From the IMG/VR virus record IMGVR_UViG_2811995368_000001, positions 11,894 to 75,893 of that record: 64,000 nucleotides of DNA, one strand, 5' to 3'. Of this stretch, positions 2,889-60,523 are shown piece after piece. The translations under genes and the position numbers were made by a program. The number at the start of each line of letters is the position of its first letter. The stretch's first letter is position 1. The DNA is from a virus. Lineage: Duplodnaviria; Caudoviricetes. Below the pieces are notes generated by a model, which was given only the letters and a program-made list of their open reading frames with translations, did no database searches and was not told the DNA's origin.

Positions 2889-3455
2889 TCAGATGGTTCC
2901 GAACGGATGCAGGCACCGCTTGGCGTCGATGTACGCCTGCTGGGCCTGCAATGGGTCGGAGAAATGGCCCAGGAATTGACGCTCCCGGTTCAGCGTGATG
3001 TGGGCGCGGAATGTGCCTTCGCGCCGGCCTTGGCTGACGCCTATCAGGCCGGTGCTGCTATGCCGCGCTGCGCGGCGGCGGTTCTGCTGGTTCTCGGTAT
3101 TCGAGAGTTCGCGCAGGTTGCCGATGCGGTTGTCGTCGCGCCTGCCGTTGATGTGATCGACCAGCTTTTCCGGCCAGACCCCATACATGTAGAGCCACGC
3201 GAGACGGTGCGCGTTGTAGTCCTTGCCCGCGATGCGAATGCGGACGTAGCCGTTGCGCCGCGTGCCGGCGGGTTTGCCGGCGGGAGCGCGGTTCGACTGG
3301 GGAACACGCCAGGTGAAGACGCCGGTGTAGGGGTCATAGTGCAGAAGGAGCCGGAGCACTTCCGCCGTGATCGCCGGAGTGCCAGTTTCCGCGCCGCGAA
3401 AAAACCGGGCGGCCTGCTCGGCAGGCTCGCCCGGATACATGACACATGCCGACAT
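2889..3455 (-). CDS. HNH homing endonuclease with C-terminal AP2-like DNA-binding domain (start uncertain)
   Basis: AHRLAW...VDHINGRRDDNRIGNLR HNH motif; GVS...FRAHITLN...LGHF...AQQAY AP2-like tail. Confidence 0.85.
   Translation of the reverse strand: MSACVMYPGEPAEQAARFFRGAETGTPAITAEVLRLLLHYDPYTGVFTWRVPQSNRAPAGKPAGTRRNGYVRIRIAGKDYNAHRLAWLYMYGVWPEKLVDHINGRRDDNRIGNLRELSNTENQQNRRRAARHSSTGLIGVSQGRREGTFRAHITLNRERQFLGHFSDPLQAQQAYIDAKRCLHPFGTI
3399..3434 (-). terminator. Hairpin downstream of VR2 (DGR target-recognition hairpin) followed by T6, also shaped like an intrinsic terminator
   Basis: Minus strand CCGGGCG-A-GCCTGC-CGA-GCAGGC-CGCCCGG-TTTTTT. Confidence 0.7.
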
Positions 3456-3461
3456 GACCCA

Positions 3462-4436
3462 TTACACCTTTGCGAGGCGACCGCCGATACTCGCGTTGAC
3501 GTCCGACGCGGGATTATTGACATTGAGGCAGAACAACCCATCGTTCGCCCCGTTCGCCCAATGGCCGCCGTGGTAGGCGACGCCGCCAGACCAGAACCAC
3601 GAGTAGTTGCCGTAGGCCGCGTCCTCTTGCTCGTCGCGGGTCTTCTTCGGCACGAACACCGCGCCCAGGTCGAAGCCCTCGCCGACGTTGCGCAGGCGCT
3701 TGTGGATCCAGCCATGCTCCGGCGCTTCGATGCTGGTGTTGAGCAGGTTGCGGTGGCCGTCCTTGCCCCAGATGAGGAACTCGCGGTTCGCGCTGGTCTG
3801 CAAGCCGTCCAGCATCTGCCAGACGTTACCCCAGAGGCCCGTGATGCCACGGTAGGCGGCCTGCACCACCTCGGCGTCATCGACCTTGCGCACGCCGTTT
3901 CCGTCGGTGTAGCCCTCGCCCAGAATGGACTTGACGTTGGGCGTGCCGCACTCGATCAGGGCCAGCGCCTGGATGGCCGCGAGCTGGTAGATGCTCCACA
4001 ACATCCAGCCATCGCCGCGCGCGGCGGCGCGCGCCTGCATGGTGGGGAAGTCGATGCGCGCCAGCGGCATCAGGCCGGCTTGCGAACCCAGCTTGTCGTC
4101 GCCGTCCGGCGTGCCCTGGTACTTGCCCAGCCAGTATTGCGCGAGGTCGGCGCCGTGGTTGCGGAAGGCCGGATGCAGCGCGTAGCCTTCGGCGGGTTCG
4201 TCGCTCACCCAGAGCGCCTTCTTGCCCAGCAGCGGGCCGTCGCGCACGATGTCGGAGCGGTAGTAGAAGGCCGGCACACGCACCATGCTCTGGCCGTCGA
4301 TGTCCTCGTCGGCGATGCCGGCGAAAGTCGGGTGGTTGCTGAAGAAGCTGGCGTCCGGGTCGATGATGGCGCCGCTGTTGTCGATGCGCGTCCAGGGCGC
4401 GTGCTTCTTGCCGAAGACGATGCCGATTTGGCTCAT
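3462..4436 (-). CDS. DGR target protein 2: stand-alone C-type-lectin-fold (Mtd/FGE-like) domain, paralogue of tail-fibre C-terminus
   Basis: ATG at 4436 with AAAGGA RBS (324 aa); collinear similarity to last ~330 aa of 56485-59049 (HPTF/HPTY, MVRVPAFY/MVKVPAFY, LHPAF, ADLAQYW.GKYQG, IDFPTMQARA, GLW.NVWQM.DGL); ends in VR2 and GGRLAKV. Confidence 0.92.
   Translation of the reverse strand: MSQIGIVFGKKHAPWTRIDNSGAIIDPDASFFSNHPTFAGIADEDIDGQSMVRVPAFYYRSDIVRDGPLLGKKALWVSDEPAEGYALHPAFRNHGADLAQYWLGKYQGTPDGDDKLGSQAGLMPLARIDFPTMQARAAARGDGWMLWSIYQLAAIQALALIECGTPNVKSILGEGYTDGNGVRKVDDAEVVQAAYRGITGLWGNVWQMLDGLQTSANREFLIWGKDGHRNLLNTSIEAPEHGWIHKRLRNVGEGFDLGAVFVPKKTRDEQEDAAYGNYSWFWSGGVAYHGGHWANGANDGLFCLNVNNPASDVNASIGGRLAKV
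3469..3572 (-). repeat. DGR variable repeat VR2
   Basis: 104 bp, 99/104 identical to TR 60420-60523; all 5 mismatches at TR adenines. Confidence 0.95.
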
Positions 4437-4681
4437 GTTGATGTCCTTTGCGTTGATGGGGGTGCTTGATGGGCGGTGATGGGTTCCGGCTTTCACCATG
4501 TCCGGCATGGGCCTGTGCGCGTTCAGGCTCGCGTCCTACTCGCTGCGTCTGGCTGCGCACGACCGCCGGGGCAGTCCCATACCAGCATCCGCTTTCGTTC
4601 CGGTTTCCACGACCTCCGGCTGGTCGAATAGACATGCGCCCGGTTTGATTCCCAGTCCAGCCTGTCAGTGGGGTCGGAAGG

Positions 4682-4757
4682 TGGTAGCGGCGGCTGGAAT
4701 CGAACCAGCGACCTCCGGGTTATGAACCCGGCGAGCTTCCAACTGCTCTACGCCGCA
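4682..4757 (-). tRNA. tRNA-Met(CAT), initiator (fMet)-type
   Basis: 76-nt cloverleaf with encoded CCA; anticodon arm CCGGG-TTCATAA-CCCGG (three G:C pairs), U1:U72 mismatch, A11:U24, GTTCGA T loop. Confidence 0.92.
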
Positions 4758-4763
4758 ATTCGG

Positions 4764-5027
4764 TCAATCGAGGCCGGTTTCGGGCGGCGCGGTGCGCACG
4801 ATGCGCGCCGCTTCCTCGAAGGCTTTGGCGAGCTGCTCCCGGCGCGCCGGCGACTTGGGCAGCCAGAACGTCACGGCGCTGCGGTCATCGTCCTGCGGCG
4901 GGTGGTGCAGCCGTTCGCTGCTGTGCAAGATGAACTGAACGGCGTGATACGTGACGCCGGTGTTGCTCGGCTTCTCCACCCGCAACACCTCATCGGTCAG
5001 CTCTTGGCTGTAGATGTTGATGCGCAT
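4764..5027 (-). CDS. Hypothetical phage protein (MRINIYSQELTDEV...)
   Basis: ATG at 5027 with TAAGGA RBS. Confidence 0.65.
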   Translation of the reverse strand: MRINIYSQELTDEVLRVEKPSNTGVTYHAVQFILHSSERLHHPPQDDDRSAVTFWLPKSPARREQLAKAFEEAARIVRTAPPETGLD

Positions 5028-6424: not shown

Positions 6425-6475
6425 TTAGGCGAATCTTAGGCGACGCCTAACGATGTGTCAATAGGCAAAGCCTAA
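6425..6475 (-). promoter_or_regulatory. Leftward early promoter PL with three OL operators
   Basis: TTGACA(6461-6456)-N17-TAAGAT(6438-6433); operators TTAGGCGAATCTTAG 6425, TTAGGCGACGCCTAA 6436, ATAGGCAAAGCCTAA 6461. Confidence 0.85.
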
Positions 6476-6597
6476 GATTTTTGACAAAACAAAACCCGGC
6501 CATGTGGCCGGGCTTGGGGAGGGTGAAAAATGGGAAGGTGCGAGGTGCCAGCTATGTCAGCGGCAAAGGTGGTTGTGTATCGCGGCGCATCGCGTGG

Positions 6598-7298: not shown

Positions 7299-7757
7299 TT
7301 AAGCCGCGTTCTTGGTCTTTTTTCTCTCGTGTAGCAGCTTGGCGGCACTGGCTTTCCATACGTTCAGTATGCCGTGCGCCGTGGCATCAAGCCAAGGCGG
7401 GACTTTGCCCACCCCAAGAATCGCATCCACGATTGCCCTGGTGGCGTCATCCGCACGCTCGTAGGCATCCCATACTGACGGTTGTTCGCTGGTCGAATCA
7501 GGGGTGGACGCGCTACCGCTGTCCGCCGGCAATTCCTTCAGGCCCCAGTGTTCCGGCCCGACGACATCCGAGAAATAGCGCCACAACTCCGGCAGCTTTT
7601 CCTTCGAGATCGTCCCCCGTTTTTTCCAATCGGCAAGGGACGGCTGCTTCACGCCGAAGTGGCGAGCGACTTCCACTTCGCGGCTGATCGCTCCCGAAGC
7701 CTTTTTTAGTTTTATGGCCTGGGCAATAGCCTGGCCTAGTTCTTTCCCATTAAGCAT
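7299..7757 (-). CDS. CI-like HTH repressor without peptidase domain
   Basis: HTH EVARHFGVKQPSLADWKKRG; divergent from cro across operator array. Confidence 0.8.
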   Translation of the reverse strand: MLNGKELGQAIAQAIKLKKASGAISREVEVARHFGVKQPSLADWKKRGTISKEKLPELWRYFSDVVGPEHWGLKELPADSGSASTPDSTSEQPSVWDAYERADDATRAIVDAILGVGKVPPWLDATAHGILNVWKASAAKLLHERKKTKNAA

Positions 7758-7828
7758 TGCCTAAGAATCCTCTACCGTGCATGTGTTAGGCAATTCCTAT
7801 TGACATGAAATTAGGCGTCGCCTAAGAT
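7750..7828 (+). promoter_or_regulatory. Rightward early promoter PR with three OR operators
   Basis: TTGACA(7800-7805)-N17-TAAGAT(7823-7828); operators TTAAGCATTGCCTAA 7750, TTAGGCAATTCCTAT 7786, TTAGGCGTCGCCTAA 7811. Confidence 0.85.
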
Positions 7829-7836
7829 TCGTCCTT

Positions 7837-8115
7837 ATGGAACCGACCAAACACCAAAAAGCCATCAGGGAAGCGTGCCGAATCGTCGGCGGGCAGGCCG
7901 TTCTGGCCCGGCTTCTCGGGGTTTCTCCGCCCACGGTGAATCAGTGGGTATCCGGGGCACGCCAAGTCCCCGCCGAACGCTGCCCGGCCATCGAGAAGGC
8001 CACGGGCGGTGCCGTGACGTGCGAAGAGCTGCGCCCTGACGTTGATTGGGCCTACCTGCGCGGCTCTGGCGCTGCTGCAAATAACGAGACGACTGGAAGC
8101 GAGGCTGCTGCATGA
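7837..8115 (+). CDS. Cro-like (YdaS family) regulator
   Basis: GGQAVLARLLGVSPPTVNQW...CPAIEKATGGAVTCEELRPD. Confidence 0.88.
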   Translation: MEPTKHQKAIREACRIVGGQAVLARLLGVSPPTVNQWVSGARQVPAERCPAIEKATGGAVTCEELRPDVDWAYLRGSGAAANNETTGSEAAA

Positions 8116-34143: not shown

Positions 34144-34766
34144 AGGCCGGCGAATCCTACGGTTTCCTGCCTGGCCGCTATCCGGCCATCGTGCGCGGCT
34201 ACGATGCCGACGCGCGCATGTGCCGAGTGGAGATTCCGGGCCTGACCGACGGCGGCGATGTGCTGCCGCTGGCTGAAATCGAGTATTCCCTGGGCGACAA
34301 GTCGCGCGCCGGCGCGAACACCACTGAAATCGAAATCACGGCGGGCGATCCCGTCTGGGTTGCCTTCATCGGCGGCGATGCTCGCTACCCCATCATCACC
34401 GGCTACCGTAACCCGCAGGCGGGAAATTCGACGGGCTGGCGGCGCTGGCACCATGCCAACATGGAATTGCTCGCCGATGCGCTGATGAACCTGATCGCCC
34501 AGGGCGACGTGCTCATCAAGTCCGGCTCGCATGTCACGGTGCAGGCCCCGCAGGCAACGATTGATTCGCCAGAAACGACCTGTACCGGCAATCTGACTGT
34601 GGCCGGCGGCCTGACGGTGCAAGGCGCCGGCGGCAAGGCATCCACGGTGAATGGTGGCTTTGCCGTCGAGGGCGGTTCCCTGACGCACAACGGCAAGAAC
34701 GTGGGTAGCGACCACAAGCACGGTGGCGTAGCGAAGGGCGGCTCCAACACCGACGACCCGATTTGA
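34140..34766 (+). CDS. Baseplate central spike (gpV-like)
   Basis: OB-fold N-terminus (RVEIPGL, GDPVWVAFIGGD..YPII), beta-helix, terminal HKH metal motif. Confidence 0.85.
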   Translation: MKAGESYGFLPGRYPAIVRGYDADARMCRVEIPGLTDGGDVLPLAEIEYSLGDKSRAGANTTEIEITAGDPVWVAFIGGDARYPIITGYRNPQAGNSTGWRRWHHANMELLADALMNLIAQGDVLIKSGSHVTVQAPQATIDSPETTCTGNLTVAGGLTVQGAGGKASTVNGGFAVEGGSLTHNGKNVGSDHKHGGVAKGGSNTDDPI

Positions 34767-34786
34767 AAGAGAAAGGAAACCAGACC

Positions 34787-35269
34787 ATGAAAAACCTGCT
34801 TTTCAGCTTTGAAGACCTGTCCGCCAAGGACAAGGCGGCCAAGCAGGCCGTCCGCTTCTTCTCGCGCGCCGGCGCGAATGTCGTGCAGCAGGACGTGCCT
34901 GCCACGGTGAAGCGTTCGTCCGGCATCACCTACCGGGAAATGACCCTGACCTTCGCCGATTCTCAGCAGGTGGTGCTGCGCATCAAGCAGTCGGGCGACA
35001 TCTTCCAGGTGCTGGTGAATGGCAAGGCGCTTCCCATCAAGAACCAGGACGACCATGTGAAGGCCATCGCGGAAATCGTGCAGGCGCTGGACGCCGGGCG
35101 CGTCAAGTTCCAGAAGACGCTCGCCGCCGCGAAGGTGCGCCCGCCCGCCGGGATTCGCACCGCCGCGCCGAAGATGGAACAGGTACTGACCCAGAAGCGC
35201 GACGCCCTGAAGGAATCCATTGCGTCCGTGCGCGAGCAGATCGCCAGCCTGGCACCCGCCGCCGCCTGA
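34787..35269 (+). CDS. Hdf-like protein (DarA N-terminal homologue)
   Basis: KRSSGI...FADSQ...GDIFQVLVNGK pattern; upstream of DarA-like gene as in P1. Confidence 0.65.
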   Translation: MKNLLFSFEDLSAKDKAAKQAVRFFSRAGANVVQQDVPATVKRSSGITYREMTLTFADSQQVVLRIKQSGDIFQVLVNGKALPIKNQDDHVKAIAEIVQALDAGRVKFQKTLAAAKVRPPAGIRTAAPKMEQVLTQKRDALKESIASVREQIASLAPAAA

Positions 35270-35273
35270 CACC

Positions 35274-35414
35274 ATGAGCAGCAGTACCGCGCCGCAGCCG
35301 CAGCCAGAATCACCGGCCAAGCGGCTGCGCGCGATGGCCGATGAAATGGCCGACATCTGCATCCTCATCCACCAGATTGCCGCCGACCTTCAGGCGGAAA
35401 ACTCCCCGAATTGA
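35274..35414 (+). CDS. Small hypothetical protein
   Basis: 46 aa ORF filling gap. Confidence 0.3.
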   Translation: MSSSTAPQPQPESPAKRLRAMADEMADICILIHQIAADLQAENSPN

Positions 35415-35435
35415 CAGGCAAGCGGGCCATACCAT
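35396..35435 (+). promoter_or_regulatory. Candidate late promoter 4 (leaderless)
   Basis: GGAAAA at 35396, TACCAT at 35430, ATG at 35442 with no RBS. Confidence 0.68.
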
Positions 35436-35441
35436 GCCTGC

Positions 35442-38400
35442 ATGACCAGTACGCCTCTGCACCTCATCGAGAGCGCGGCCCACGAGGGCGCTTTCGGCCA
35501 GAACCTGACGCCCGAACCGTCGGCGGCCCAGTGCCGCGCTGGCAACTACAAGATGGGGCGGGTGGGCCTGCACGGGCTGAACCTTGTGATCGAGCAGCCG
35601 CGCGGGAGCACGCGCTCCGGCGTGGATGAAGCGACCGGCAAGGCATGGTCTAGCCGCATGGCGGCGCATTACGGGTACATCGGCGGCACGACCGGCGCGG
35701 ACGGCGATGGCGTGGATTGCTTCATCGGCCCCTACCCGGACGCCGAGCGGGCCTACGTCATCAACCAGAACGTCGGCGGGCAGTTCGACGAGCACAAGGT
35801 AATGCTCGCCTTCCCTGACCTGGCATCGGCGCGCAGCGCCTACTTGAACAGCTACGAACGCGGCTGGAACGGGCTGGAAAGCATCGTCCCGGCTTCTCTT
35901 TCTCAACTCAAGTGGTGGCTGACACACGGCGACCTGAAGCGCCCGCTACGGGCCGACACCCTACCCAAGGAAGGACTTGAAACCATGAAGAAAACTCACT
36001 GGAACACCGACGCGCAGCCCTACAACACCACTTTGGCCCAGGTGCTGTACGACATCCGGCGCTCCGACAGTGGCGAGGGCCTTCTTCTGGATGCCGTTAC
36101 CGCCCAGGAAATCATCGACGACGCCGAGGGCGCGCTGGCCTTCGACGCGCTGGTGACGCCCTATGCCAAGCTGGAACGCCGGATGGAACTGCTGCGCGGC
36201 ATCATGGAGCGCACCGGCGACAAGGTGAAGCCCGTCGCCCTGCAAATCACCGACCCGTTCAAGCAGCGCGGCGTCGCCAATGTGGCCGCCATCTTCGAGC
36301 TGTCCGACGGCCAGACCGTGACCATTTTCTTCCACAACCCCGACGTGACGCCGAACAAGATGGCGCCGGCGGACGAGGTTATCTCGTGGAAGTGGTTGCT
36401 GAACAAGAAGGACATCACCATCGTCGTCGCGCCGGAGCGCGGCGCCGACCTGAACATCCGCGAGGTGGCGCGCCGCATCATGCGCCTGGCCGAGAAGAAC
36501 AGCGAGGCGTTCCAGCGCGTGAATGCCACGCGCGCGACGCGGATGCAGAACATCCAGTCCCTGAAGGACGAGATCGCCGGACTGGAAAACGAGCTGGCGA
36601 CCGCCCAGCATGAACTCGAAGTGGCGAAGGTGGCTGCCGAAGGCAAGCCGGAATTCGACCCGACCACGCCCGAAGGCTACGCCAAGGTGCGCGGCGACGA
36701 AGCCCTGCAACTCTACTGGCAAGACCGTCTCGACGCCTTCTTCCAGGGCCGCATTGTTGCCGTCCGCAACTCCCTGCGTGTTCTGGGCTGGGAAGGCCGC
36801 GAGCCGAACGACACCCGCCTCTACAAGGAAGACGCCGAGGTGCAGCCGACCTTTACGCACGTCGGCGCAGGCCGCAACGTCGCCGGCTGGGCCATGAACG
36901 GCATCGACGACGACCTGACCAAAACCCCGGAAGAGTACGCCGCCCAAGTGGATGCGGCGGCGATGGCCGAGGTTGCGCGCCGCGCGCAAGCCGCGAAGGG
37001 TGCGCAGCAGAAGACCGACATCACCTATCGCAACAGCGCCGACGGCCTCTTCACGTCGTTCTTCCCGAATACGCCGGAAGGCGAAAAGGCGTGGAACATC
37101 ATCAATGCCACGCCGGGCGCCGAGGGCGGCAAGGTGCTGGCTGCCCATGCCGAGCCGACCATTGCGCAACTGCGCGAGGCCGGCTACACCGTGGCCGATG
37201 ACACCAGCGCGCCGATGACGCCCGAAGAGGAAGCAGCCCTGCTGAAGGAGCTTGGCGGGGATGCGGCCGCCGCCCAGCCGAAGAAGTCGGCTCCGTGGTG
37301 GGAAGGTTCCGTGGGCGAGAAGTACGCTGCCGTGTATCTGCTGGGAAAATCTCGCGGCAACGACTATCTGACCATGACCGAACAGGGCGGGGCCTACTTG
37401 GCGCACGTCAAGGACGGCAATCTTGGCCGTGAGAAGGTGGGCACTCCCGCCGACATCGTGGAATGGTTGCGTGCCGATGTATTTGTCGGGATGGGCGACG
37501 CCTTCGCCGGAAAGTCGCTGACCGTGGATGATGTGCGCGCAAAACTCAAGCTGGTCAAGGGTGAAGACATCCTGTTCAGCAATGCCGCCAAGCAACCTGC
37601 CGAACAGGAGCTGATCGCCGCCTATTCCCGTTCCTTCAGCGAGGCTGCTGCCGTGCTCAATGCTGCCGTGGCGGCGGTGAACTGGGACGGCATCACCGAT
37701 ACCGCCACCATGCGCGCGGAACTCGATAAGCTGAACGTCGCCTCGCGCACCGGCCAGCACGACATCATCGGCAAGGCTTCCAGTGCCCTCGAAGCCATCG
37801 GCATCAAGACGTGGGACGAGCGCCTTTCCAGCCTGCGCGGCGAGGCCGGATTCATCGCGTGGCGCGACGCGCTGGACGCCTCGCGCGCGGCCTTCGACAA
37901 GATTCAGGCCGTCGCCAAGGAACGCCTGATCGCCAAGGGCACGGCGGAAGTCGCTGCGCTGACCGCCGAAAGCCCGCTCGCCGACGTGGCCGCCGCTATC
38001 TTCCACAAGGCGGGCATCGACACCGGCACCCAGACCCCGCAAATCGTCGCCGCCATCGAGGCCAAGGACGCCGCGCTGGCGTGGAGCATCCTGCGCAACC
38101 TCGACAACAAGGCCAGTGCGGAGATTTTCGAGCGCGCCACCGGCGTCAAGCTGGCGAAGACCCAGCGCGACCGCCGCCCGCAGATCGACGCCTGGGCCGG
38201 TATCACGCCGGAACAGCGCGCGGAACTCGAAGCGCAGCGCACCGAAGCGCAGGCCGCCAAGGAACGCGACGAAAACCTGAAGCGCGCCTGGAACGGGCTG
38301 ACCTCCATCAGCGTGCGCGCCAGCGACGGCAACGTGAGCAACGGCCAGGACTTCCTGAAGTCGCTCTTCGCCAAGGGATTCGACGAAGTGGTGGTGCGCA

Positions 38401-40784
38401 AGCGCGGTGCCGTGCCCACGTACTACATGCGCAACGCCGAAAGCCAAATCACCGGCGTCAAGAGCAAGAACTTTAACGGCTTCTTGAAGGCTGCTCTGAC
38501 CCTTGGCGGCCTGCGCCAGGCACTGGAATCCCTGGGCGTGATCGAGGTGCAGGCCGAGAAGACTGACGCCGAGAAAATCGCCGCCGTCGATGACGCCTAC
38601 CGCTTCACCAGTGCCACCGACGAATTCAAGCTATGGCTGGCTGAATCCGTGCTCAAGGACGACTATTCGCCCTTCCTGACCGCGAAGGGCATGGACGAGG
38701 CCGCCAAGCGCCACGGCGCTGAAATCGAGTGGGGCGAGTTCGCCGGCGCCGCGATGGATTCTGTCCATACCATCGCCGGTGAGCAATTTGACGGCGGCGA
38801 GTTCGACACGCTGCGCGCCATGAAGGAGAACCCCAAGATCGAGGACGGCGACGTGCCGTCCAAGGCGTCCCGCGATTCGCTGGTGGAGCGCGGCTACGTC
38901 GAACGCCGTGACGGCTACAACTGGCTGACGAACAAGGGCCGGGATCTTGTCGCGGCTCTCGACGACGTGGGCCATGCCGTCGCTACCCTGCAACAGGCGC
39001 TGGACGTGGCCCAGACCAATGAACCCATCAACCGTGCCGAGGGCAACACCGAGCAAGCCGACCTCGAAGCCGAGGTGGCGGCCAGTATCAAGGAAGCCAT
39101 CGCCATCCTGACCGAGGGCGACTACGAGCCGGACGAAGCCGAAACCGGCATCACGTTCGACGTGGAAACGGCCCTGGACAGTGCCGCCGCTTTCGAGGCC
39201 GAAACCGAGGCGCGCGGCGTGGCTGCCACCAAGGCCCTGCTCAACGGCTTCAGCGCCTTCTTGGCATCGGATGCGAAGTTCTCCCCGCTGCTGGACAGCG
39301 TGCGCGAGATTGCCACCTTCGACAGCGCGCTCACGCCGCTGCGCTCCATGATGTCCTGCCGCGCCTCGCTTTCCGGCGTGGAAATGACGCAGGATGAAGC
39401 GGAGCGCATGGATGCCTTCGCCAACGATGCTCGCGCCATCAGCGACCGCCTGACCGGGCGCGCCGGCGCGAACCCCGAGAAAAATCCTGCGCTGGATGGT
39501 GTGGATGACGACGGCTACGTGGGCAAGGTCAAGAAGGGCGACCAGGTGCTGGGCCGCATCGACATCGGCGACGACGGCAAGGCGATGGTGTATGTCGGCG
39601 AAGCCGGCGACGAGCGCGTGAAGGGTAGCGAAGGCCGCCCGTTCATGTATTCCGAGGATGACGCCCCGGAAATGGTGGAAGCCCTGTTCGCCGCCGAGGA
39701 ATCGCCCGCTGCGCAATCTGCCGCCTTCGTCGGCCCGGCGAAAGACCGCATGGCCGCGCTCAAGGTGCTGACCGATACCGGCATGAACCGCTGGATGTCG
39801 GAGTCCCAAAACAAGGCCGTCATCGCCGGATTGATGGGCGAGGAATGGCAGTTCTTCGCGGACAAGATGAAGGAGTTGGCCGGCGTCATCGCCACCATGC
39901 CGAAGACCTACGACCAGGACGGCAAGGGGGATGAGGCCGTAGCGCACCTGCACTACTTCCGTGGCGCTGGCGACTGGTACATCACCGAGAAGGACATGGA
40001 AGGTCACGGCACCGAGCAAGCCTTCGGCCTGGCCGACCTGTACGGCGACGGCGGCGAGCTGGGCTACATCAGCATCATCGAACTTGCGGAGGCCGGCGTG
40101 GAACTGGACTTTCACTTCAAGCCCAAGACCATCGGGCAAATCCGTGGCGGCGCGTCCGGCGCCAGCGAAGAGCAACAGCAGGAACCCGGCGGCGGCAACC
40201 CGGATGCGACGCCTGCTGCTGCCGCGCCGGCCAGCGAGGCCGACCAATCCCTGCGCGCCTTCGCTGCCGCCACCAACAGCGAACTCTACGACCCGGACTA
40301 CAGCGGCGGCCAGTGGATGATCGAAGCGGTGGAGACGCAGGAAACCATCGCCGACTTCGTGGCCGCATCCGCCAGCTACCAGGAAGCGACCGCGCCCAAG
40401 TTCGGCCAGATCGCCGGTTTCAAGTTCGTTGCCTTCTCGAAGGTGCAGGCGCGCAAGGGCGACCAGCGCCGCGAGCTGTCCGTTATCGACTTCGGCTTCG
40501 CGCGCTTTGCCCTCAATGCCGACCTGACCAACTTCGACTACCAGGCGTGGGACGGCACCTATCCCGACCAGACGGCAGCGGCAGACCAGAAGACGGTTGA
40601 TCGCGCCCTGTTCCAGTCCGTCATCGACGGCACCGCTCCCGACATCCTCGCGCCCGACCTGGCTGATTCCCTGGAAGCCGCTTTCAATCGCAACCAGGGC
40701 GACCCGGACATGGTGAATCTGTTTGAACTGGCCGTCGGCGCTTACCAGAACGCCATGCTGGCCGCCACCGCGAACCTCTCCTGA
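35442..40784 (+). CDS. Large polyvalent DarA-like head protein (pyrophosphatase-like N-domain + DarA-N + DUF2958-like domain)
   Basis: GNYKMG...HYGYI.GT.GADGDGVD...FDEHKVML; FELSDGQTVTIFFHNPD...WLLNKKDIT; LHYF...DWYITE...AFGLADL...ELGYIS. Confidence 0.75.
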   Translation: MTSTPLHLIESAAHEGAFGQNLTPEPSAAQCRAGNYKMGRVGLHGLNLVIEQPRGSTRSGVDEATGKAWSSRMAAHYGYIGGTTGADGDGVDCFIGPYPDAERAYVINQNVGGQFDEHKVMLAFPDLASARSAYLNSYERGWNGLESIVPASLSQLKWWLTHGDLKRPLRADTLPKEGLETMKKTHWNTDAQPYNTTLAQVLYDIRRSDSGEGLLLDAVTAQEIIDDAEGALAFDALVTPYAKLERRMELLRGIMERTGDKVKPVALQITDPFKQRGVANVAAIFELSDGQTVTIFFHNPDVTPNKMAPADEVISWKWLLNKKDITIVVAPERGADLNIREVARRIMRLAEKNSEAFQRVNATRATRMQNIQSLKDEIAGLENELATAQHELEVAKVAAEGKPEFDPTTPEGYAKVRGDEALQLYWQDRLDAFFQGRIVAVRNSLRVLGWEGREPNDTRLYKEDAEVQPTFTHVGAGRNVAGWAMNGIDDDLTKTPEEYAAQVDAAAMAEVARRAQAAKGAQQKTDITYRNSADGLFTSFFPNTPEGEKAWNIINATPGAEGGKVLAAHAEPTIAQLREAGYTVADDTSAPMTPEEEAALLKELGGDAAAAQPKKSAPWWEGSVGEKYAAVYLLGKSRGNDYLTMTEQGGAYLAHVKDGNLGREKVGTPADIVEWLRADVFVGMGDAFAGKSLTVDDVRAKLKLVKGEDILFSNAAKQPAEQELIAAYSRSFSEAAAVLNAAVAAVNWDGITDTATMRAELDKLNVASRTGQHDIIGKASSALEAIGIKTWDERLSSLRGEAGFIAWRDALDASRAAFDKIQAVAKERLIAKGTAEVAALTAESPLADVAAAIFHKAGIDTGTQTPQIVAAIEAKDAALAWSILRNLDNKASAEIFERATGVKLAKTQRDRRPQIDAWAGITPEQRAELEAQRTEAQAAKERDENLKRAWNGLTSISVRASDGNVSNGQDFLKSLFAKGFDEVVVRKRGAVPTYYMRNAESQITGVKSKNFNGFLKAALTLGGLRQALESLGVIEVQAEKTDAEKIAAVDDAYRFTSATDEFKLWLAESVLKDDYSPFLTAKGMDEAAKRHGAEIEWGEFAGAAMDSVHTIAGEQFDGGEFDTLRAMKENPKIEDGDVPSKASRDSLVERGYVERRDGYNWLTNKGRDLVAALDDVGHAVATLQQALDVAQTNEPINRAEGNTEQADLEAEVAASIKEAIAILTEGDYEPDEAETGITFDVETALDSAAAFEAETEARGVAATKALLNGFSAFLASDAKFSPLLDSVREIATFDSALTPLRSMMSCRASLSGVEMTQDEAERMDAFANDARAISDRLTGRAGANPEKNPALDGVDDDGYVGKVKKGDQVLGRIDIGDDGKAMVYVGEAGDERVKGSEGRPFMYSEDDAPEMVEALFAAEESPAAQSAAFVGPAKDRMAALKVLTDTGMNRWMSESQNKAVIAGLMGEEWQFFADKMKELAGVIATMPKTYDQDGKGDEAVAHLHYFRGAGDWYITEKDMEGHGTEQAFGLADLYGDGGELGYISIIELAEAGVELDFHFKPKTIGQIRGGASGASEEQQQEPGGGNPDATPAAAAPASEADQSLRAFAAATNSELYDPDYSGGQWMIEAVETQETIADFVAASASYQEATAPKFGQIAGFKFVAFSKVQARKGDQRRELSVIDFGFARFALNADLTNFDYQAWDGTYPDQTAAADQKTVDRALFQSVIDGTAPDILAPDLADSLEAAFNRNQGDPDMVNLFELAVGAYQNAMLAATANLS

Positions 40785-40797
40785 AGGGAAGAAAGAC

Positions 40798-43700
40798 ATG
40801 CTGAACCGTATCGCCTTCGATAGCGCCGTGGGAAGCGGCGGCGTGCTGGCACGGCTGAAACTGGTGGGCGAACTGGCCCGCGTCAAGGCGGAACTGAAGG
40901 GGGCAAACGGTGCGCTCGCGCGCCTGAAGCTGTCCGCGCGCGCGAACCAGATCCGCGCCGAGCTGGGGGCAATGCAAACGGCCACGGGGGGCGCCGCCGA
41001 AGGTGAGCAGCCCGCCGCGCCGGATGCCACCGCTGGCGATGATGCTCCGTCCGCACCGCGCAACCAGACGGCCCAGTATTACGAGTTCGACCCGAACCGC
41101 AAGCCCGCCCAGCGCAAGAAGGACAACACCGAGGCGATGGCTCTGCTTCGTCGCATCGACGCTGGCGAGGTGGATTCGGCGCGCCTGACGCCGGAAGAAA
41201 AGCTGGCGCTGGCGAAGTATTCCGGCACGGGCGGCGCGCTCATCGGCGCCGACGGCAAGAAGGGCAGCGCCTACGAGTATTACACCCCCAAGCCCATCGC
41301 CGAGGGCGTCTGGGAGTTGATGGGCGAGCTGGGCTTCTCCGGCGGCAAGGTGCTCGACCCGTGCGCCGGTGTTGGCGTCTTCGGTGCGACCGCACCCCTG
41401 TCCGCCGCCATCGACGCGGTGGAGCTGAACGAAACGTCGGGCCGCATCAACGGCCTGGTCAATGCCGGCCCTGGCTACACCGCAACGGTTTCCCCGTTCG
41501 AGAAGGTGGCCGCCGCAACCCCGGACGAGCAATACGACGCTGTGGTGACGAACGTCCCGTTCGGCGGCGTAGCCGACCGTGGCGGGAATCAACTGCTGGA
41601 CAGCCGCTACCAGAAGGAACCGCTGCAAAATTACTTCATCCTGCGCTCGCTCGAAAAGCTGAAGCCGGGCGGCCTGGCCGTGTTCATCACGCCGCCGCGC
41701 TGCGTCTCCGGCAAGGGCGGAAAGGAAGAAGAGCTGCGCGTGAAGGCCAGCTACGTCGCCGAATTCCTGGGCGCCTACCGGCTCCCCAATTCCGTGTTTG
41801 GAACGGCCAGCGCGGACACCATGACGGACGTGATCGCGTTCCGCAAATACAGCCGCGACACCCTGGACAAAATCGCCGAACTGCGCGAGCAGTCGCCCAA
41901 GGTGCTGATCGAGGCGAACGTGCAATGGCAGCCCTTCATCGACGGGCGCTACTTCGACGGCGAGGGCAAGCGGTTCGTGCTGGGCGAGTTCGTGCCCAAA
42001 GACCCGACCAAGTTCCGCGACGTAGATCGCGTCATCACCAAGGCCCCCATCGGTGAAATCGGGCGGATGCTCAAACGCTTCCCTGATTCCCGTGTGAATT
42101 GGGACATGCTGGGCGCGTCCGAAACCACGCCCATCATCTACCGCGACGGCGACACCATCACCCAGGCCGGGCAGACCCTGCAAATGCAGGATGGCCGCTG
42201 GGTGCCGCTGGCGCGTGGTGAGGACAGCGCAAGCATGGCCGACCTCGTGGGCAAGATGAAAGACCCCTACGCCGCCTTCGAGGCCGGCGCCACCTGGCCG
42301 GATGCTGAAAAGTGCGTCGATTACATGGTGGAAACCTCGCAGTCGCTGGACATTCCGGACTGGCTGCGCGGAGCGATGGCCGAAATTCGCCGCCTGAAGG
42401 CCGCCGACCAGCGCGCCCAGTTCTGGAACGCTGGCATCGTCGGCATGGCCGCCGCGCAGGTGCTGCAAGAGCGCCTTGGCGAGGAAACCGGCGTCAATTT
42501 CCTGGCCGAATATCCTGCCCTGTCCGACGCCATGCAGCGCGTCGCCGGCGTCGCCAAGAAGCGCCCGTCGGCGCTGGGCGGCAAGCTGCGCGACGGCTTG
42601 CTGACCATCGGCAACCACTACCAGAAGAAGACCGGATTTTCGGCGGTCTGGCGCGGCGACGTGCAGCAGCAGGCCCCGAGCGTCGAATCCACGGCGGATT
42701 CCACCTTCGAGGGCTTGCGCTACAAGACGAAATCCATCTGGGCGAGCCTGGAAGACACCAGGGCCATCTACGGCGAAGGATTCGACCCGCACGCGGATCC
42801 CGCGTGGTGCCTGTCGCCCGACGGAAAGAGCGTCACGCGCGCGGACGACTACTACGTGGGCAACTACGCCGAGTTCTTGGCGCGCGTGGATGCCGACATC
42901 GCCGGCGCGGCCAGCGACGACATCCGAGCCAAGCTGCTGCGCCAGAAGATGGACGCCGCCGCCCGCATCGACAAGGTGGATGTGTCGAAGCTGACCTTCA
43001 ACCTGTTCAGCCCGCACGTCTCCCTGGAAGAGAAGGCCGACTTCCTGCGCCGTTTCGTCCATCCGTCTGCCGCTGTCATCTACGACGAGCGCACGGGCGA
43101 GAAGCGCGTGGACATCGACGTGCCCGGAAGCAACCTGACCGACCGCGAAAAGCTGCTGAACCGCATCGGCGACTACCTGAAGAACGGCACGATCACCCTG
43201 GGCGGCGTCAAGCTGGGGATGGACGATGCCAAGGCCCTGCATGAGCTGCGCCGGATGGTGAATACTGCCAACGAGCAGTTCAACGGCTGGGTGCGCGGCA
43301 ACCGCGCCATCGTGGCGCGTCTGGAAGCCATCGCATCCGACCCGGCGAAGCTGCGTTTCCGCCAGGTGGAGGACGAGGCGCCGATGCCGATTCCCGGCAT
43401 GAACCCCGACCTCACCCTGCACGGCTACCAGAACGCCTACGTGCGCAAGACCAGCCGCGAGTTCGGCGGCATCAACGGCTTCGGCGTGGGTCTGGGCAAG
43501 ACCTTCACGGCGCTGGCGGCCACCCAGTACGCCCAGAGCATCGGCGTCAAGTCGAAAACCGCCTTCGTGGTGCCCAACTCCGTGCTGTCCAACTGGCGCA
43601 AGGAGGCCGCGCGCGCCTACGCCAACACCGACGACTGCCTGTTCATCGGCCTGCGCGTCGGAAAGGACGGCAAGGCAACCGTGAGTTCGTCGAATTTCGA

Positions 43701-47241: not shown

Positions 47242-47250
47242 GGACGAATC

Positions 47251-47664
47251 ATGGCCTACACCGAATACAAGTTCGACAAGGACGCCATCAAGGCTCTGGT
47301 GGCAGAACGCGCCGCCGGCCTGCGTGCCAATCGCGGGTTCTCGAATCTGCTGGGCTTCGGCCTGGGCGTGGTGGCGGAGCGGTTGCAGAAAGACCCGCGC
47401 CGCTACCGCGACTATGGCCCGTACTGGTGGGCGCTGAAGGATGCGCTGAAGACGGGCGGGTACGAGCTGGGCGATCAGGGCGACCCACTCATCCAGCGGG
47501 CCTACCAGGGGGAGACTGCCGAGGAAACCCTCATCATGGCCGACGAGTTTCGCACGGCCTACCTGGCGTCGAACATCATCTACACCAACCAGTTCATGCT
47601 CGACGCCGATAACCCGGACTTCTACACTCTGTTCGACAAGGACATGGAGTTTCCGGCGGCGTAG
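47251..47664 (+). CDS. Hypothetical protein following DarB-like gene
   Basis: 137 aa ORF with TAAGGA RBS. Confidence 0.65.
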   Translation: MAYTEYKFDKDAIKALVAERAAGLRANRGFSNLLGFGLGVVAERLQKDPRRYRDYGPYWWALKDALKTGGYELGDQGDPLIQRAYQGETAEETLIMADEFRTAYLASNIIYTNQFMLDADNPDFYTLFDKDMEFPAA

Positions 47665-56484: not shown

Positions 56485-59049
56485 ATGTCCCTGCCCAACC
56501 CGAATATCACGCCGATTCCGAACAACGAGCCGGACGCCGTTCCCTCGCTGTGGAACACGCGCTACCAGGAAATCGACGAAAACTTCACCGCCCTCGATGA
56601 GCGCCAGGCGAGCGTCGAAGACGAGCTGAACGAAGCCAAGGGCGACGCGCCCAGCTTCGCCGCGAAGATGAACCAAGTGGCGCAGGCCGTGCAAGACCTG
56701 GGCGGCGACATCGGCGATCTGCAAGGCATGACTGCGCCCATGCTGGCGCGCGCCGTGCGTCTGGACTGGGACTACTCGGGCAACAACATCAGTCTGGAAA
56801 TGTGGGTCGGCGAATACACGCTGACCGACACCCAGCCCATCGCCGTGACCTCTGCCGTGGCCGGTGACGATTCCATCGACGTGACCGATTCCAGCTTCTT
56901 CGAGCCGGGCCAGAACTACGTCATCTACAACGCGGCACACGCCGAGCAAGTCCATGTCGATGCCGTGCTGACCAGCACCCGCGTCCGCGTCTCCGCGCCG
57001 CTGGCATTCGCCTACGGCGGCGCCGGCGCGTTCCTGGCTCGCACCTCGTTTGCCGTCGCCAACGGCACGGCCCAAGCCAAGCCCGGCGCAGCCTACTTCA
57101 GCAAGCCTATCAATCTGGGCTTCGACGGCTCCAAGCGCGCCGTGGTCATCCGCCGCACGCCCACCGCATCCGTCGTGAATGTCGATTTTCTGATCGATGG
57201 CAATTGGGTGAGTGCGCCGCTCGCCTGGACGCGCTCCGGCGGCAAGGTGCCGGAAGGCTATATCGACTGCGAATACGAACTTCTGGTCAATGGCGACACC
57301 GCGCTGCGCGTGACCGTCGTCGGCGGCGCCGGTAATACCGAGATCCAGCACATCATCGGCCTGGGCACCGTCACCGGCCTGCGTGGCACGCACACGTCGC
57401 CGCTGAAGCCCGTCATGTCCAACCCCGTCGATGGCGCGACGAACCTGACCGACCGCCCGACGCTGGGCCTGACCGGCTATTCCTCGCCCACCGACACGCC
57501 CGTGGGCGCAGTGCAGTTCCAAGTGTCCGCCACCGCCGACTTCGCCGAGGTCATCATCGACAGCGGCACGCAAGTGGGCGGCCTGTCCTGGCAAGAAATC
57601 GGCCTGCGCCTGCAAGTCAGCAGCAGCTACTTCGCCCGTGGCCGCGCGCGCGACGCCGAGGGCGCATGGTCGCCGTGGTCTGACCCTGTTTCGTTCTCCA
57701 CGGCAGCGTCCTTCGTCTATGTGCAGGCGCCCTCGAACGTCGGCCCGGCCAACAACCTGACCAACGTCGCCGACACGCCCACGCTCTCGTCCAGCAGCTT
57801 CGCCGTCTATGCTGGTTCGGATACCCAGGCGGCGGCCCAGTGGCAAATCCGCGAAGCCAGCGCGTCCTACGACGCCTCCACCCTGGACACCGGCGAAGAT
57901 GCCACGCATCTGACCTCGCTGGCCGTTCCCGCCGGCGTGCTGAAGTCCTCGAACACGCAATATTTCTGGCGCGTCCGCCACAAGGGCACCGCGCATGGCT
58001 GGTCGGAATGGTCGGTGGAAACGAAGTTCACCACCAAGAAGATTTTCGGCACCGTCGTCGGTATCGCCCTGATTTCGACGGGCGCGACTTCCGGTTCCTG
58101 GGCGCGCATCGACGAGGATGGCAACGCGAAGACCACCGACGCAGCCTTCTTCAACGCGCACCCGACCTACTCTGGCATCGTCGATCAGACCATCGACAGT
58201 CAGGCGATGGTCAAGGTGCCGGCCTTCTACATCAAGACCGGCCTTGTGGCGTCCGGTGCCTACGTCGGCAAGAAGGCGATCTGGGTTTCCGACAAGAAGG
58301 AAACTGGCTTCGAGCTGCACCCGGCTTTCAAGAACGCCGGCGCTGACCTGGCCCAGTATTGGGTCGGCAAGTACCAGGGTTCCAATGCTTCGGGCAACAA
58401 GCTGGCGTCCGTCACCGGCGTCGCTCCGCTGGTTTCCATCGACTTCCCGACGATGCAGGCCCGCGCGAACGCGCGCAACACCGGGGGCGTTACGGGCTTC
58501 TCGCTCTGGAACATCTACCAGCTCTCCGCGCTTCAGATGCTGGCCCTCATCGAACTGGGCAACCCGGACGCGCAGACCCTGATCGGCCAAGGCAACTCGA
58601 ACAGCTCCGCCGCTACCAACGTCGATGCGTCGCCCACGTCGCAAGCCTCGTGGCGCGGCATCATCGGCCTCTGGTCGAACGTCTGGCAGATGGTCGATGG
58701 ACTGCAAACCGACGCCAGCCTGAAATACAAAATCTGGGACAAACAGGGAAAAAAGACCTACATCACCACGAACCAGGTGGCGCCGTCGGCTTCGGCCTCC
58801 TACCCGGTCACGATGTCCGTGGATGCCGGCGCGAACTACGACCTGTCGCAAGTGTTCCTGCCCGCCACCATCGACGCTTCGGCCTCGAACGGCACGTATG
58901 CGGACGCCTTCTGGTCGGCTGCGAACTGCGTGGCCTACCACGGCGGCTGTTGGGCGAACGGGGCGAACGGTGGGTTGTTCTGCCTCGGTGTCGATAATCC
59001 CGCGTCGAGCGTCTACACGGGTCTCGGCGGTCGCCTCGCAAAGGTGTAA
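56485..59049 (+). CDS. Tail fibre/receptor-binding protein, DGR target 1 (two FN3-like domains + C-terminal CLec-fold domain)
   Basis: End of tail operon; WSPWS and WSEWS FN3-like modules; C-terminal VR1 ending GGRLAKV. Confidence 0.9.
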   Translation: MSLPNPNITPIPNNEPDAVPSLWNTRYQEIDENFTALDERQASVEDELNEAKGDAPSFAAKMNQVAQAVQDLGGDIGDLQGMTAPMLARAVRLDWDYSGNNISLEMWVGEYTLTDTQPIAVTSAVAGDDSIDVTDSSFFEPGQNYVIYNAAHAEQVHVDAVLTSTRVRVSAPLAFAYGGAGAFLARTSFAVANGTAQAKPGAAYFSKPINLGFDGSKRAVVIRRTPTASVVNVDFLIDGNWVSAPLAWTRSGGKVPEGYIDCEYELLVNGDTALRVTVVGGAGNTEIQHIIGLGTVTGLRGTHTSPLKPVMSNPVDGATNLTDRPTLGLTGYSSPTDTPVGAVQFQVSATADFAEVIIDSGTQVGGLSWQEIGLRLQVSSSYFARGRARDAEGAWSPWSDPVSFSTAASFVYVQAPSNVGPANNLTNVADTPTLSSSSFAVYAGSDTQAAAQWQIREASASYDASTLDTGEDATHLTSLAVPAGVLKSSNTQYFWRVRHKGTAHGWSEWSVETKFTTKKIFGTVVGIALISTGATSGSWARIDEDGNAKTTDAAFFNAHPTYSGIVDQTIDSQAMVKVPAFYIKTGLVASGAYVGKKAIWVSDKKETGFELHPAFKNAGADLAQYWVGKYQGSNASGNKLASVTGVAPLVSIDFPTMQARANARNTGGVTGFSLWNIYQLSALQMLALIELGNPDAQTLIGQGNSNSSAATNVDASPTSQASWRGIIGLWSNVWQMVDGLQTDASLKYKIWDKQGKKTYITTNQVAPSASASYPVTMSVDAGANYDLSQVFLPATIDASASNGTYADAFWSAANCVAYHGGCWANGANGGLFCLGVDNPASSVYTGLGGRLAKV
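58939..59042 (+). repeat. DGR variable repeat VR1
   Basis: 104 bp, 92/104 identical to TR; all 12 mismatches at TR adenines. Confidence 0.96.
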
Positions 59050-59080: not shown

Positions 59081-59106
59081 GGGCGAGCGCGCCAAGCGCG
59101 CCGCCC
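59081..59106 (+). promoter_or_regulatory. DGR target-recognition hairpin downstream of VR1/IMH
   Basis: GGGCG-A-GCGCGC-CAA-GCGCGC-CGCCC; same architecture as hairpin after VR2. Confidence 0.8.
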
Positions 59107-59724: not shown

Positions 59725-60033
59725 GTGAAGCAATACTGCGCACGCCTCGCCCTGCTGCTGGGTTCCATGTTGATGACGCTGGCGGGGAACCTGCTGGCGC
59801 TGGCGTCGGCCATCGCGGGAAGTGACCGCGCTTTCCGTGTCGCCGTCTCCAACGACCAGACCCTGAACGCCGCGCTCGACGGCAGCGAGGATGAAACCAT
59901 CAGCAGCCGCGCCGGAAAGGCCGCCCGCGAGGGCAAGCGGTGGGGGTGCGTCCTGTGCAGGCTGCTCAACGTCTTCGACAACGACCATTGCCAGAAGACC
60001 ATCGAAGAGGACGAAGGAGAGAGGCTGGTTTGA
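59725..60033 (+). CDS. Conserved small phage protein
   Basis: DQTLNAAL.G..DETISSRAG...LC..L...D.DHC. Confidence 0.65.
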   Translation: MKQYCARLALLLGSMLMTLAGNLLALASAIAGSDRAFRVAVSNDQTLNAALDGSEDETISSRAGKAAREGKRWGCVLCRLLNVFDNDHCQKTIEEDEGERLV

Positions 60034-60386
60034 AAAACAACGACGCATACCAAAAGCTCATCACCAAGTTGGAAGAACTCGACGCCTATACGCACACCGT
60101 CCTGCATCAGTTCCCGAAGCTCGAAAGGCATCTGCTCTGCGCTGAAATGCGCGCCGCCATGAACAAGGTATGCCGTCTGGCCGTCGTGGCGTGGAAGCGC
60201 CGCCAGAAGGCTTCGTCGCTTTTCGATTTGGACGTGGAGATCGAGGTGTTCCGGCACTTCATCCGCAAGGCCCACCGCCTCGAATACATCAACACGCATC
60301 GCCTGGAAGTCTGGATGAGACACACCAATGAGATAGGCCGCATGGTCGGCGCGTGGATCAAACACGAAGGAGCCGCCATGTCGTAG
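60030..60386 (+). CDS. avd: DGR accessory variability determinant
   Basis: TTG start after GAAGGAG; 118 aa basic helical protein QFPKLERHLL...LDVEIE...EIGRMVGAW; directly upstream of TR. Confidence 0.9.
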   Translation: MKNNDAYQKLITKLEELDAYTHTVLHQFPKLERHLLCAEMRAAMNKVCRLAVVAWKRRQKASSLFDLDVEIEVFRHFIRKAHRLEYINTHRLEVWMRHTNEIGRMVGAWIKHEGAAMS

Positions 60387-60419: not shown

Positions 60420-60523
60420 AACGGCGGCAATTGGGCGAACGGGGCGAACGATGGGTTGTTCTGCCTCAATGTCAATAATCCCGCGTCGAACGTCAACACG
60501 AATATCGGCGGTCGCCTCGCAAA
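60420..60523 (+). repeat. DGR template repeat (TR)
   Basis: AAC/AAT-rich copy of both VRs between avd and RT; 3' end GCAAACGAC differs from VR GCAAAGGTG (IMH* vs IMH). Confidence 0.96.

Follow-up and report, generated by a model that had tools for sequence, protein, structure and literature searches.

A prophage diversity-generating retroelement with two targets, a tail fibre tip and a free copy of it in a predicted early operon

Phage diversity-generating retroelements (DGRs) are usually explained as tail-fibre tropism switches. In the DGR of phage BPP-1 (mtd-avd-TR-brt), a reverse transcriptase (RT), Avd and a template repeat (TR) act with adenine specificity on the C-terminal variable repeat (VR) of a lectin-fold receptor-binding module. 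Homing in BPP-1 requires an initiation of mutagenic homing (IMH) sequence and a GC hairpin downstream of the VR, and the two, when transplanted with spacings of 4-34 bp, suffice to target another gene (Guo 2011, PMC3240598). The system described here shares these features with BPP-1, the IMH-type end and the hairpin included, and lies in a 64,000-nt stretch of a temperate phage, bases 11894-75893 of the 75,893-bp provirus record IMGVR_UViG_2811995368_000001 (the window; the record is labelled G000 in comparisons). It differs from BPP-1 in that two genes are natural targets, the second neither adjacent nor on the same strand: the tail fibre gene, and a small gene whose 324-aa product (P0001) duplicates the binding domain of the fibre and nothing else. 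The predicted fold of the target also appears to differ, its nearest match being TaqVP of Thermus aquaticus and not Mtd, the target of BPP-1.

Two-target DGRs have been described before. In many phage-associated DGRs an adjacent target is accompanied by a non-adjacent one, which lies within ~50 kb and presumably belongs to the same prophage (Wu 2018, PMC5758913); this is a survey-level remark, in whose available text the nature of the second targets is not analysed; five host genus names of the P0001 family were absent from one supplementary file of that survey. Roseburia phage Shimadzu carries VR1 in a tail gene and VR2 in orf43, a gene of unknown function, and both targets vary in virion reads and mouse viromes (Cornuault 2019, bioRxiv 10.1101/575076). 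As here, the tail target adjoins the RT and the second target lies elsewhere; unlike here, Shimadzu is a Firmicutes siphophage, and it gave no sequence match to P0001 in a collection of 50,697 phage records, which held no close relative of P0001 (6 matches, the best in any phage at 28% identity). The portions of the Shimadzu text that were available are silent on the operon of orf43, its kinship to the tail target and its origin, and the genome position is given in a figure only. In the Faecalibacterium phages Lagaffe_CP, Lelie and CP11 a large target is paired with a small homologous one, and neither has an assigned function (PMC11792537). The targets of Lelie and CP11 carry DUF6273, which P0001 lacks (no Pfam match at E<=1); doubled host-range switching was the role suggested for the Faecalibacterium pairs, and early-operon placement is not raised in the accessible text. 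Two-target gut phages were further discussed by Baykov et al. (PMC10743442), and the second targets of unknown function in Shimadzu, Lagaffe_CP, Lelie, CP11 and nd4/nd12 have been called puzzling by their authors. The preliminary description of this DNA named no described function for such a target; none is indeed described, but the layout of two targets with a small second one was already in print (PMC5758913, 10.1101/575076, PMC11792537). To this known layout the present family adds a second target that consists of the fibre tip alone and is selected in early operons. The full-text literature, with bioRxiv supplements and figures lying outside the search, yielded no paper on a free fibre tip that serves as a DGR target in an early operon of Proteobacteria, and neither this proteobacterial family nor its constant early-operon placement, repeated fibre-tip origin or composition shift was found in print.

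The retroelement and its two targets comprise the following features, in window positions.

3462..4436, minus strand: second DGR target gene, 324 aa (P0001), 49% identity to fibre residues 530-854
3469..3572, minus strand: VR2, 104 nt, at the 3' end of the 324-aa gene
3405..3434, minus strand: GC-rich hairpin ~27 nt past the stop codon after VR2, followed by a T run (fold z=-3.6)
56485..59049, plus strand: tail fibre gene, 854 aa, first DGR target, after the baseplate genes (phrog_5302 tail protein match at residues 544-852)
58939..59042, plus strand: VR1, 104 nt, in the fibre gene
59081..59106, plus strand: GC-rich hairpin after VR1, with the outer stem found after VR2 and an inner stem that differs by paired changes
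59940..60386, plus strand: open frame with avd (PF22296 bAvd at residues 42-142, ~60063-60365, E=7e-24, 84.8 bits, cutoff 40)
60420..60523, plus strand: TR, 104 nt with 26 adenines, mostly in AAY codons
60685..61749, plus strand: DGR reverse transcriptase (PF00078, E=1e-24; phrog_1423, E=1e-123)

Self-BLAST and alignment bore out the earlier claim that the 3'-terminal 104-nt tract of the small gene matches a TR ~57 kb away on the opposite strand, with 93.75% identity between 3460-3571 and 60532-60421. All five mismatches of VR2 fall at the 26 adenines of the TR (hypergeometric P=7.2e-4) and are exactly those listed before (AAC>CAC, AAT>CAT, AAC>GAC, ACG>GCG and AAT>AGT), and the mismatches of VR1 are likewise confined to TR adenines (12/12, P=5.6e-9). 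The tract stops 4 nt short of the stop codon, and the last two sense codons deviate from the TR alike in both VRs. The first change, AAC>CAC, is shared by both VRs and encodes a His conserved in at least 90% of cases across 56 family members; this change is probably the 5' border and not an outcome of mutagenesis, so that four certain events remain in VR2. Among the adenines changed in both VRs of this phage, an identical base was found at 2 of 3. Since only these two match and the first His is likely the 5' border, VR1 and VR2 were rewritten independently, and the mismatches of the two tracts, lying at other sites or having other outcomes, uphold the previous view of one DGR with two independently mutagenised targets.

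The RT, located 162 nt downstream of the TR, is the sole RT match in the whole 75,893-bp record. The true start of avd within the frame 59940-60386 is not fixed. The 102-aa open reading frame (ORF) at 59725-60033 (plus strand) was tried as avd and rejected, as its product is hydrophobic and Cys-rich with no Avd match, and avd lies in the next frame. This ORF, situated between the fibre-adjacent gene and avd, encodes a hydrophobic N-terminus and conserved Cys and His, is found in 5 relatives at 71-87% identity, and has PHROGs of unknown function as its only family matches.

The elements by which DGR targets are recognised were then compared at the two targets. Both VRs end in AAG GTG TAA and the TR in AAC GAC TAA, which, at the level of sequence, is the difference expected of an IMH/IMH* pair. 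The hairpins lie ~27-31 nt past the stop codon of each target and have a common outer stem and a compensated inner stem. When 21 related flanks were folded, of which one (L028) was too short to judge, the same hairpin was predicted after VR2 or VR1 in 17 of the remaining 20, with further compensatory stem changes. The loop has 3 nt (CGA or CAA) in this phage's clade and GAAA or GATA in Mu-like relatives, and differs in the former from the 4-nt GRNA loop of BPP-1. The hairpin after VR2 is thus a predicted DGR target-recognition element and possibly also a terminator. The small gene is 57 kb from the TR when the phage is integrated, and only ~18 kb across attP in the circular form. In the mechanism proposed, the single DGR (avd, TR and RT) would copy the 104-nt template into cDNA with errors at adenines, and the mutagenised cDNA would overwrite the corresponding sequence in two of the prophage's genes, the fibre tip (VR1) and the free copy (VR2), both being recognised through the same 3'-end motif and GC hairpin. 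We regard it as nearly certain that one DGR serves these two targets through the common end motif and hairpin.

An HNH endonuclease ORF (2889-3455, minus strand) begins 6 nt past the stop codon of the small gene and, as drawn, holds the DGR hairpin and a terminator-like T6 run, so that translation may in fact begin further downstream. The HNH ORF gave in G001 a tblastn match in two overlapping pieces (residues 1-57 and 50-188), suggesting a frameshift.

Diversification of VR2 was next assessed in relatives by comparing the resident TR of each record with its own VR2, for the 11 records that carry both the small gene and an RT. Mismatches were located only or mainly at adenines in nine of them: G000 (5/5), G001 (13/15), G002 (9/9), G005 (13/13), G007 (9/9), G008 (20/24), G009 (11/13), G012 (12/12) and G013 (10/10). 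The non-adenine differences lie at the 5' border in G001 and G008 and within the tract in G009. The exceptions are G003, in which the second TR and VR2 differ at adenines in only 9 of 20 mismatches, and G004, which has no template for VR2 anywhere in the record. Five more small-gene records without an RT are 21-73% complete and hence uninformative on RT loss. The search of related proviruses for the same two-target layout and for adenine-specific VR2 variation, which the preliminary description had proposed, therefore returned adenine-biased VR2s in 9 of 11 records. Natural populations gave a consistent picture. In four clusters at >=90% identity, of which 13, 15, 15 and 15 members were aligned out of 63, 126, 86 and 66, the number of residues per column was 1.05-1.20 in the body and 2.65-2.83 in the last 40 columns, with the variation centred on ~11 discrete C-terminal positions that match the AAY codons of the TR. 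Judged from these alignments, VR2 diversification is ongoing in natural populations, and the small gene is a true and active second target.

Of 24 sequencing runs, all of them in the form of assembled contigs, X1, X5, X15 and X16 were compared with the window; rare variants and expression level are not visible in such contigs. In three of the four runs a contig bridges 3487/8-3557/8 as 'same length, diverged'. Within the VR2 tract of one X1 contig, 5 of 14 listed differences fall at TR adenines of the present phage; as the TRs of relatives are not the same (that of G001 differs at synonymous sites), this comparison says nothing either way. Contigs of two wastewater metatranscriptome libraries (X15 and X16) cover parts of the small gene (window 3350-4800) at 95-99% identity, and owing to possible DNA carry-over they do not count as expression.

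Several variants of the layout were observed among the relatives. G003 (L087, L091) and G004 (L089, L090) have two tandem RT genes each, and the TR of the first RT serves a fibre tip of another type (11/13 and 10/11 mismatches at adenines); the tandem RTs with a mismatched or missing small-gene template look like module swapping or decay. In G005 (L108, L111), the contig ends 5-991 and 74967-75119 overlap in the fibre 3' end with differing VR1 alleles, which have 13 and 15 mismatches to the TR, all at adenines, and it seems that a pair of VR1 variants from one sample entered the assembly. The Mu-like provirus at L068:1284-3562 (record G012) has three DGR targets, an 850-aa fibre (10/11 at adenines) and, in tandem in the early region, free copies of 372 aa (12/12) and 410 aa (15/15).

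That VR2 resides in a second gene could mean that it is a stored spare, the ~180-bp homology allowing phage recombinases to swap VR2 into the fibre and so to archive or shuffle specificities. The likeness between the targets does exceed the VR: 3407-3583 matches 59106-58928 at the 3' end of the fibre gene with 85.6% identity and runs ~55 nt past the stop codon, and RecE-like and annealing-protein genes are nearby. The flank homology is, however, accounted for by the target-recognition elements; identical VR1 and VR2 changes are few within each genome (2/3, 5/9, 3/4 and 4/10 of the co-mutated sites); and storage has no need of a conserved, translated and selected 280-aa body. We consider storage scarcely probable.

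The product of the small gene was examined further. Residues 6-324 of P0001 align with fibre residues 530-854 at 49% identity; P0001 therefore represents the C-terminal module of the fibre and nothing more, as had been proposed from the first reading of the sequence. A protein search yielded 104 relatives, with ~56 clusters of 319-331 aa at 99-100% coverage and 53-93% identity, whereas P0001 had no Pfam family at E<=1 and no NCBIfam match. The start codon at 4436 is fixed, because an AAAGGA ribosome-binding site and an MxxIIG N-terminus are conserved in 12 loci. No conserved promoter or RNA element was found just ahead of the small gene: the 300 nt upstream are unrelated across these 12 loci, the ribosome-binding site excepted. 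In four of four close pairs the ratio of nonsynonymous to synonymous substitution rates (dN/dS) was 0.03-0.26 in the body, and dN in the last 39 codons was 0.19-0.24; by this measure the small gene is under purifying selection. The residues that predominate at the variable sites are Tyr, Asn, Ser, Asp, Gly and His, in the 106 free copies and the 41 fibre sequences alike, and Tyr makes up ~16% in the free copies and 22% in the fibre tips, with 6% expected from random NNY codons by our own arithmetic.

These data bear on whether the small gene might be a functionless passenger, a duplicated tip rewritten merely because its IMH and hairpin persist. Such a passenger would fit the little allele dominance of VR2 in the Shimadzu viromes (10.1101/575076) and the copies of G003 and G004, whose template is out of step or missing. 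It is opposed by the constrained body, the ~56 clusters that hold their length, the conserved start codon and ribosome-binding site, the excess of Tyr over random NNY codons, and the same composition shift in at least two independent origins (see below). We judge a functionless passenger to be very improbable, and even taken jointly with storage it claims little probability.

The AlphaFold2 model of P0001 has a pLDDT of 71.8, with residues 1-243 well modelled. In Foldseek at E<=0.001 the single-chain model matched only three chains of TaqVP (5vf4; probability 1.0, TM 0.38-0.41), and Mtd chains were not among the matches at this threshold; the family profile matched 5vf4 with E=2e-11, and FGE-sulfatase is present in 41% of members of an Atlas neighbour cluster of P0001. 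TaqVP, the closest solved structure and also the closest such sequence, is a monomeric, single-domain protein with an FGE-type C-type lectin fold and a C-terminal VR (PMC6328139). Its identity to P0001 is 17-22%, and the TM values are lowered in part by the poor VR end of the model; unlike P0001, it is not phage-borne, being a target of unassigned function in a cellular DGR. On the model, P0001 is a TaqVP-like protein of the C-type lectin fold with its VR at the C-terminus, and is probably monomeric. Cytoplasmic lectin-fold 'antigen sensor' targets of cellular DGRs offer a precedent for diversified binders other than adhesins (PMC10907252); they are fusions of cellular conflict systems, in contrast to the bare phage lectin-fold domain here.

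In line with the preliminary description, P0001 is predicted to have neither an N-terminal anchor nor a signal peptide: there is no N-terminal extension, a lipobox-like motif occurs in 0 of 56 family members, and, in a crude hydropathy test, 54 of 56 have no 19-residue hydrophobic window above 1.6. The statement that it is more charged and poorer in Ser, Thr and Ala than the fibre copy was extended to the family, in which Asp plus Glu amount to 13-15% in both free clades vs 7.7% in 43 fibre tips, with non-overlapping ranges, and Ser plus Thr plus Ala to 20% vs 27.6%. The two free clades were defined in a tree of 71 C-terminal modules, built with and without the last 45 columns by quick searches without bootstraps. 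In this tree 13 free copies (322-392 aa) form one clade nested among fibres (SH-aLRT 100), and six 372-aa free copies form a separate clade that is sister to 850-aa fibres. The two clades need two changes, and starred branches force three if all rows labelled 'short' are considered. As the two clades stay apart when the VR columns are left out, free copies would have at least two origins. Species-representative genomes contributed 44 loci; of the 40 that were sized, 20 are short and 17 long, and short and fibre copies occur on one contig in five species. The family occurs in prophages of Burkholderiales, Rhodocyclales and Pseudomonas.

The transcriptional setting of the small gene was predicted from the following features.

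6433..6461, minus strand: PL-like promoter, TTGACA-17-TAAGAT, with the operator palindrome TTAGGCGTCGCCTAA between the hexamers
6492-6515, minus strand: terminator-like hairpin preceding the PL-like promoter (consensus scan)
7299..7757, minus strand: RacR-like repressor gene (NF049929, E=4e-47, 160 bits, below the curated cutoff of 200)
7800..7828, plus strand: PR-like promoter with the same hexamers and palindrome TTAGGCGTCGCCTAA, upstream of a Cro/YdaS-like gene (7837-8115)

The RacR-like repressor gene is situated between the PL-like and PR-like sites, both of which also carry a related half-palindrome over the -35 hexamer. The small gene lies ~2 kb downstream of the PL-like site in the same direction, beyond a KTSC-domain gene, a 137-aa ORF and a tRNA-Met gene, and no minus-strand terminator was found between 6433 and 3462 in the consensus scan. 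The earlier assignment of the gene to a position downstream of a repressor-controlled PL among recombination genes agrees with this map, the predicted promoter sharing its operator with the Cro promoter. The placement recurs among relatives: the small gene is grouped with early, recombination or replication genes in 10 of 11 examined contexts (G000-G005, L069, L054, L068 and L082; that of L069 came from the PHROGs scan, and L054 and L068 were judged by the same ORF order), the eleventh, L053, being ambiguous, and in a late module in none. In all six of G000-G005 it is co-directional with its neighbours, among which are HNH, Erf-like, phrog_3657, exonuclease, SSB and dUTPase genes, and in a second class, in Mu-like phages, the 372-aa free copies lie between gam and the late activator. 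From this context we infer early expression from a leftward, repressor-controlled operon.

The phage tRNA-Met gene (anticodon CAT; 4685-4757, minus strand) lies 249 nt upstream of the small gene, with the same layout in the 93%-identical L005, and a tRNA was all that the Rfam scan found. In L007 and L012 a terminator-like hairpin with a T run separates SSB from the small gene and lies ~20-45 nt before the latter, and in L006, L008 and L014-L016 the DGR hairpin has behind it another hairpin, whose tail is T-rich. Terminators that require read-through may thus isolate the small gene from the genes around it.

Family scans of the 58 window ORFs and 20 left-flank ORFs indicated that the window and left flank form one integrated temperate phage of ~75 kb with a single DGR adjoining the integrase. 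Its remaining modules are arranged as follows.

Left end of the record: AlpA-type excisionase (family scans)
Leftward early operon, minus strand: C5 methylase, SSB, RecE-like exonuclease, phrog_3657 protein and HNH endonuclease
To the right of the leftward early operon: immunity region, then CII, methylase, DnaC-like and NinB genes (family scans)
Before the fibre gene: terminase and P1-like virion genes, namely sheath, DarA/DarB-like giants, portal and baseplate (family scans)
61738-63030, minus strand: integrase, followed by the host riboflavin synthase gene

Inside the virion module, at 34763-47664 on the plus strand, a P1-like antirestriction block was found, consisting of genes for an Hdf-like protein, a 1780-aa DarA_N/InPase protein, a 2172-aa DarB-like methylase-helicase and a Ulx-like protein.

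Two main possibilities were considered for where the small protein acts. In the explanation we propose, it would be transcribed with the leftward early/recombination operon and not with the virion genes, and would work off the virion as a soluble hypervariable binder, either in the infected or induced cell or after release at lysis, its ligand being a strain-variable component of the host or of a rival phage. Alternatively, it could belong to the virion as a further, separately encoded receptor-binding protein, docked on the tail or fibre in the manner of Mtd, so that the phage would display two independently variable adhesins. Its paralogy to the fibre tip, the 'tail protein' label of phrog_5302 and the similar use of residues at the variable sites (Tyr 16% vs 22%) would suit an adhesin, and host-binding roles for second targets are favoured by the authors of PMC11792537 and PMC10743442. 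The genomic context speaks against it, with 10 of 11 contexts early and none late, and plus-strand late transcription would be antisense to the small gene. The protein also has no extra docking domain, the alignment beginning at fibre residue 530; its nearest fold is that of the monomeric TaqVP, with no Mtd chain at Foldseek E<=0.001; charged residues have risen convergently in both free clades; and G003 and G004 keep the small gene though their fibre tip is of another type. We therefore hold a role as a second virion adhesin to be rather unlikely.

A number of points weigh against the off-virion explanation. Mtd is a 381-aa protein located on the fibre. As the receptor-binding protein of BPP-1 is itself a separate protein (PMC6328139), the lack of a long N-terminus in P0001 tells little against a virion role. 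The residues used at the variable sites are those of fibre tips and would suit a host surface or precursor structure no less than an internal protein. In Shimadzu, the one published experimental case, the VR2 alleles are under weaker selection than those of VR1, and the gene was judged less essential (10.1101/575076), and VR2 of the present phage carries changes at 4-5 of 26 adenines, too few to judge recent selection. The last 81 residues of the P0001 model (244-324), VR2 included, have a pLDDT below 50; the leaderless call comes from the crude hydropathy test; and the promoters, operator and terminators are predicted by consensus scans alone. With these points taken into account, intracellular action, early production and absence from virions are all three put forward from sequence, and we regard the chances that the small protein is an off-virion hypervariable binder from the early operon as evenly balanced. 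The overall explanation, a two-target DGR together with an off-virion early binder, is one to which we lean slightly. Its more specific form, in which a soluble, antibody-like early protein would be hypermutated against strain-variable intracellular or envelope-precursor targets, such as defence proteins or rival-phage parts, is distinctly unlikely and is put forward as a speculation.

Where phage DGRs have mostly been understood through the fibre, the second target here is a free copy of the fibre's own binding domain, and such copies are selected in early operons and have arisen at least twice, each time becoming more charged than the fibre tips. Since the family occurs in prophages of culturable hosts, what a phage gains from hypermutating a protein other than its fibre is directly testable. 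If the speculation of a hypermutated, antibody-like early protein held true, one retroelement would adapt both entry and post-entry steps to new hosts, and the repeated, independent move of fibre-tip copies into the early operons of lambda/P1-like and Mu-like phages would be its signature.

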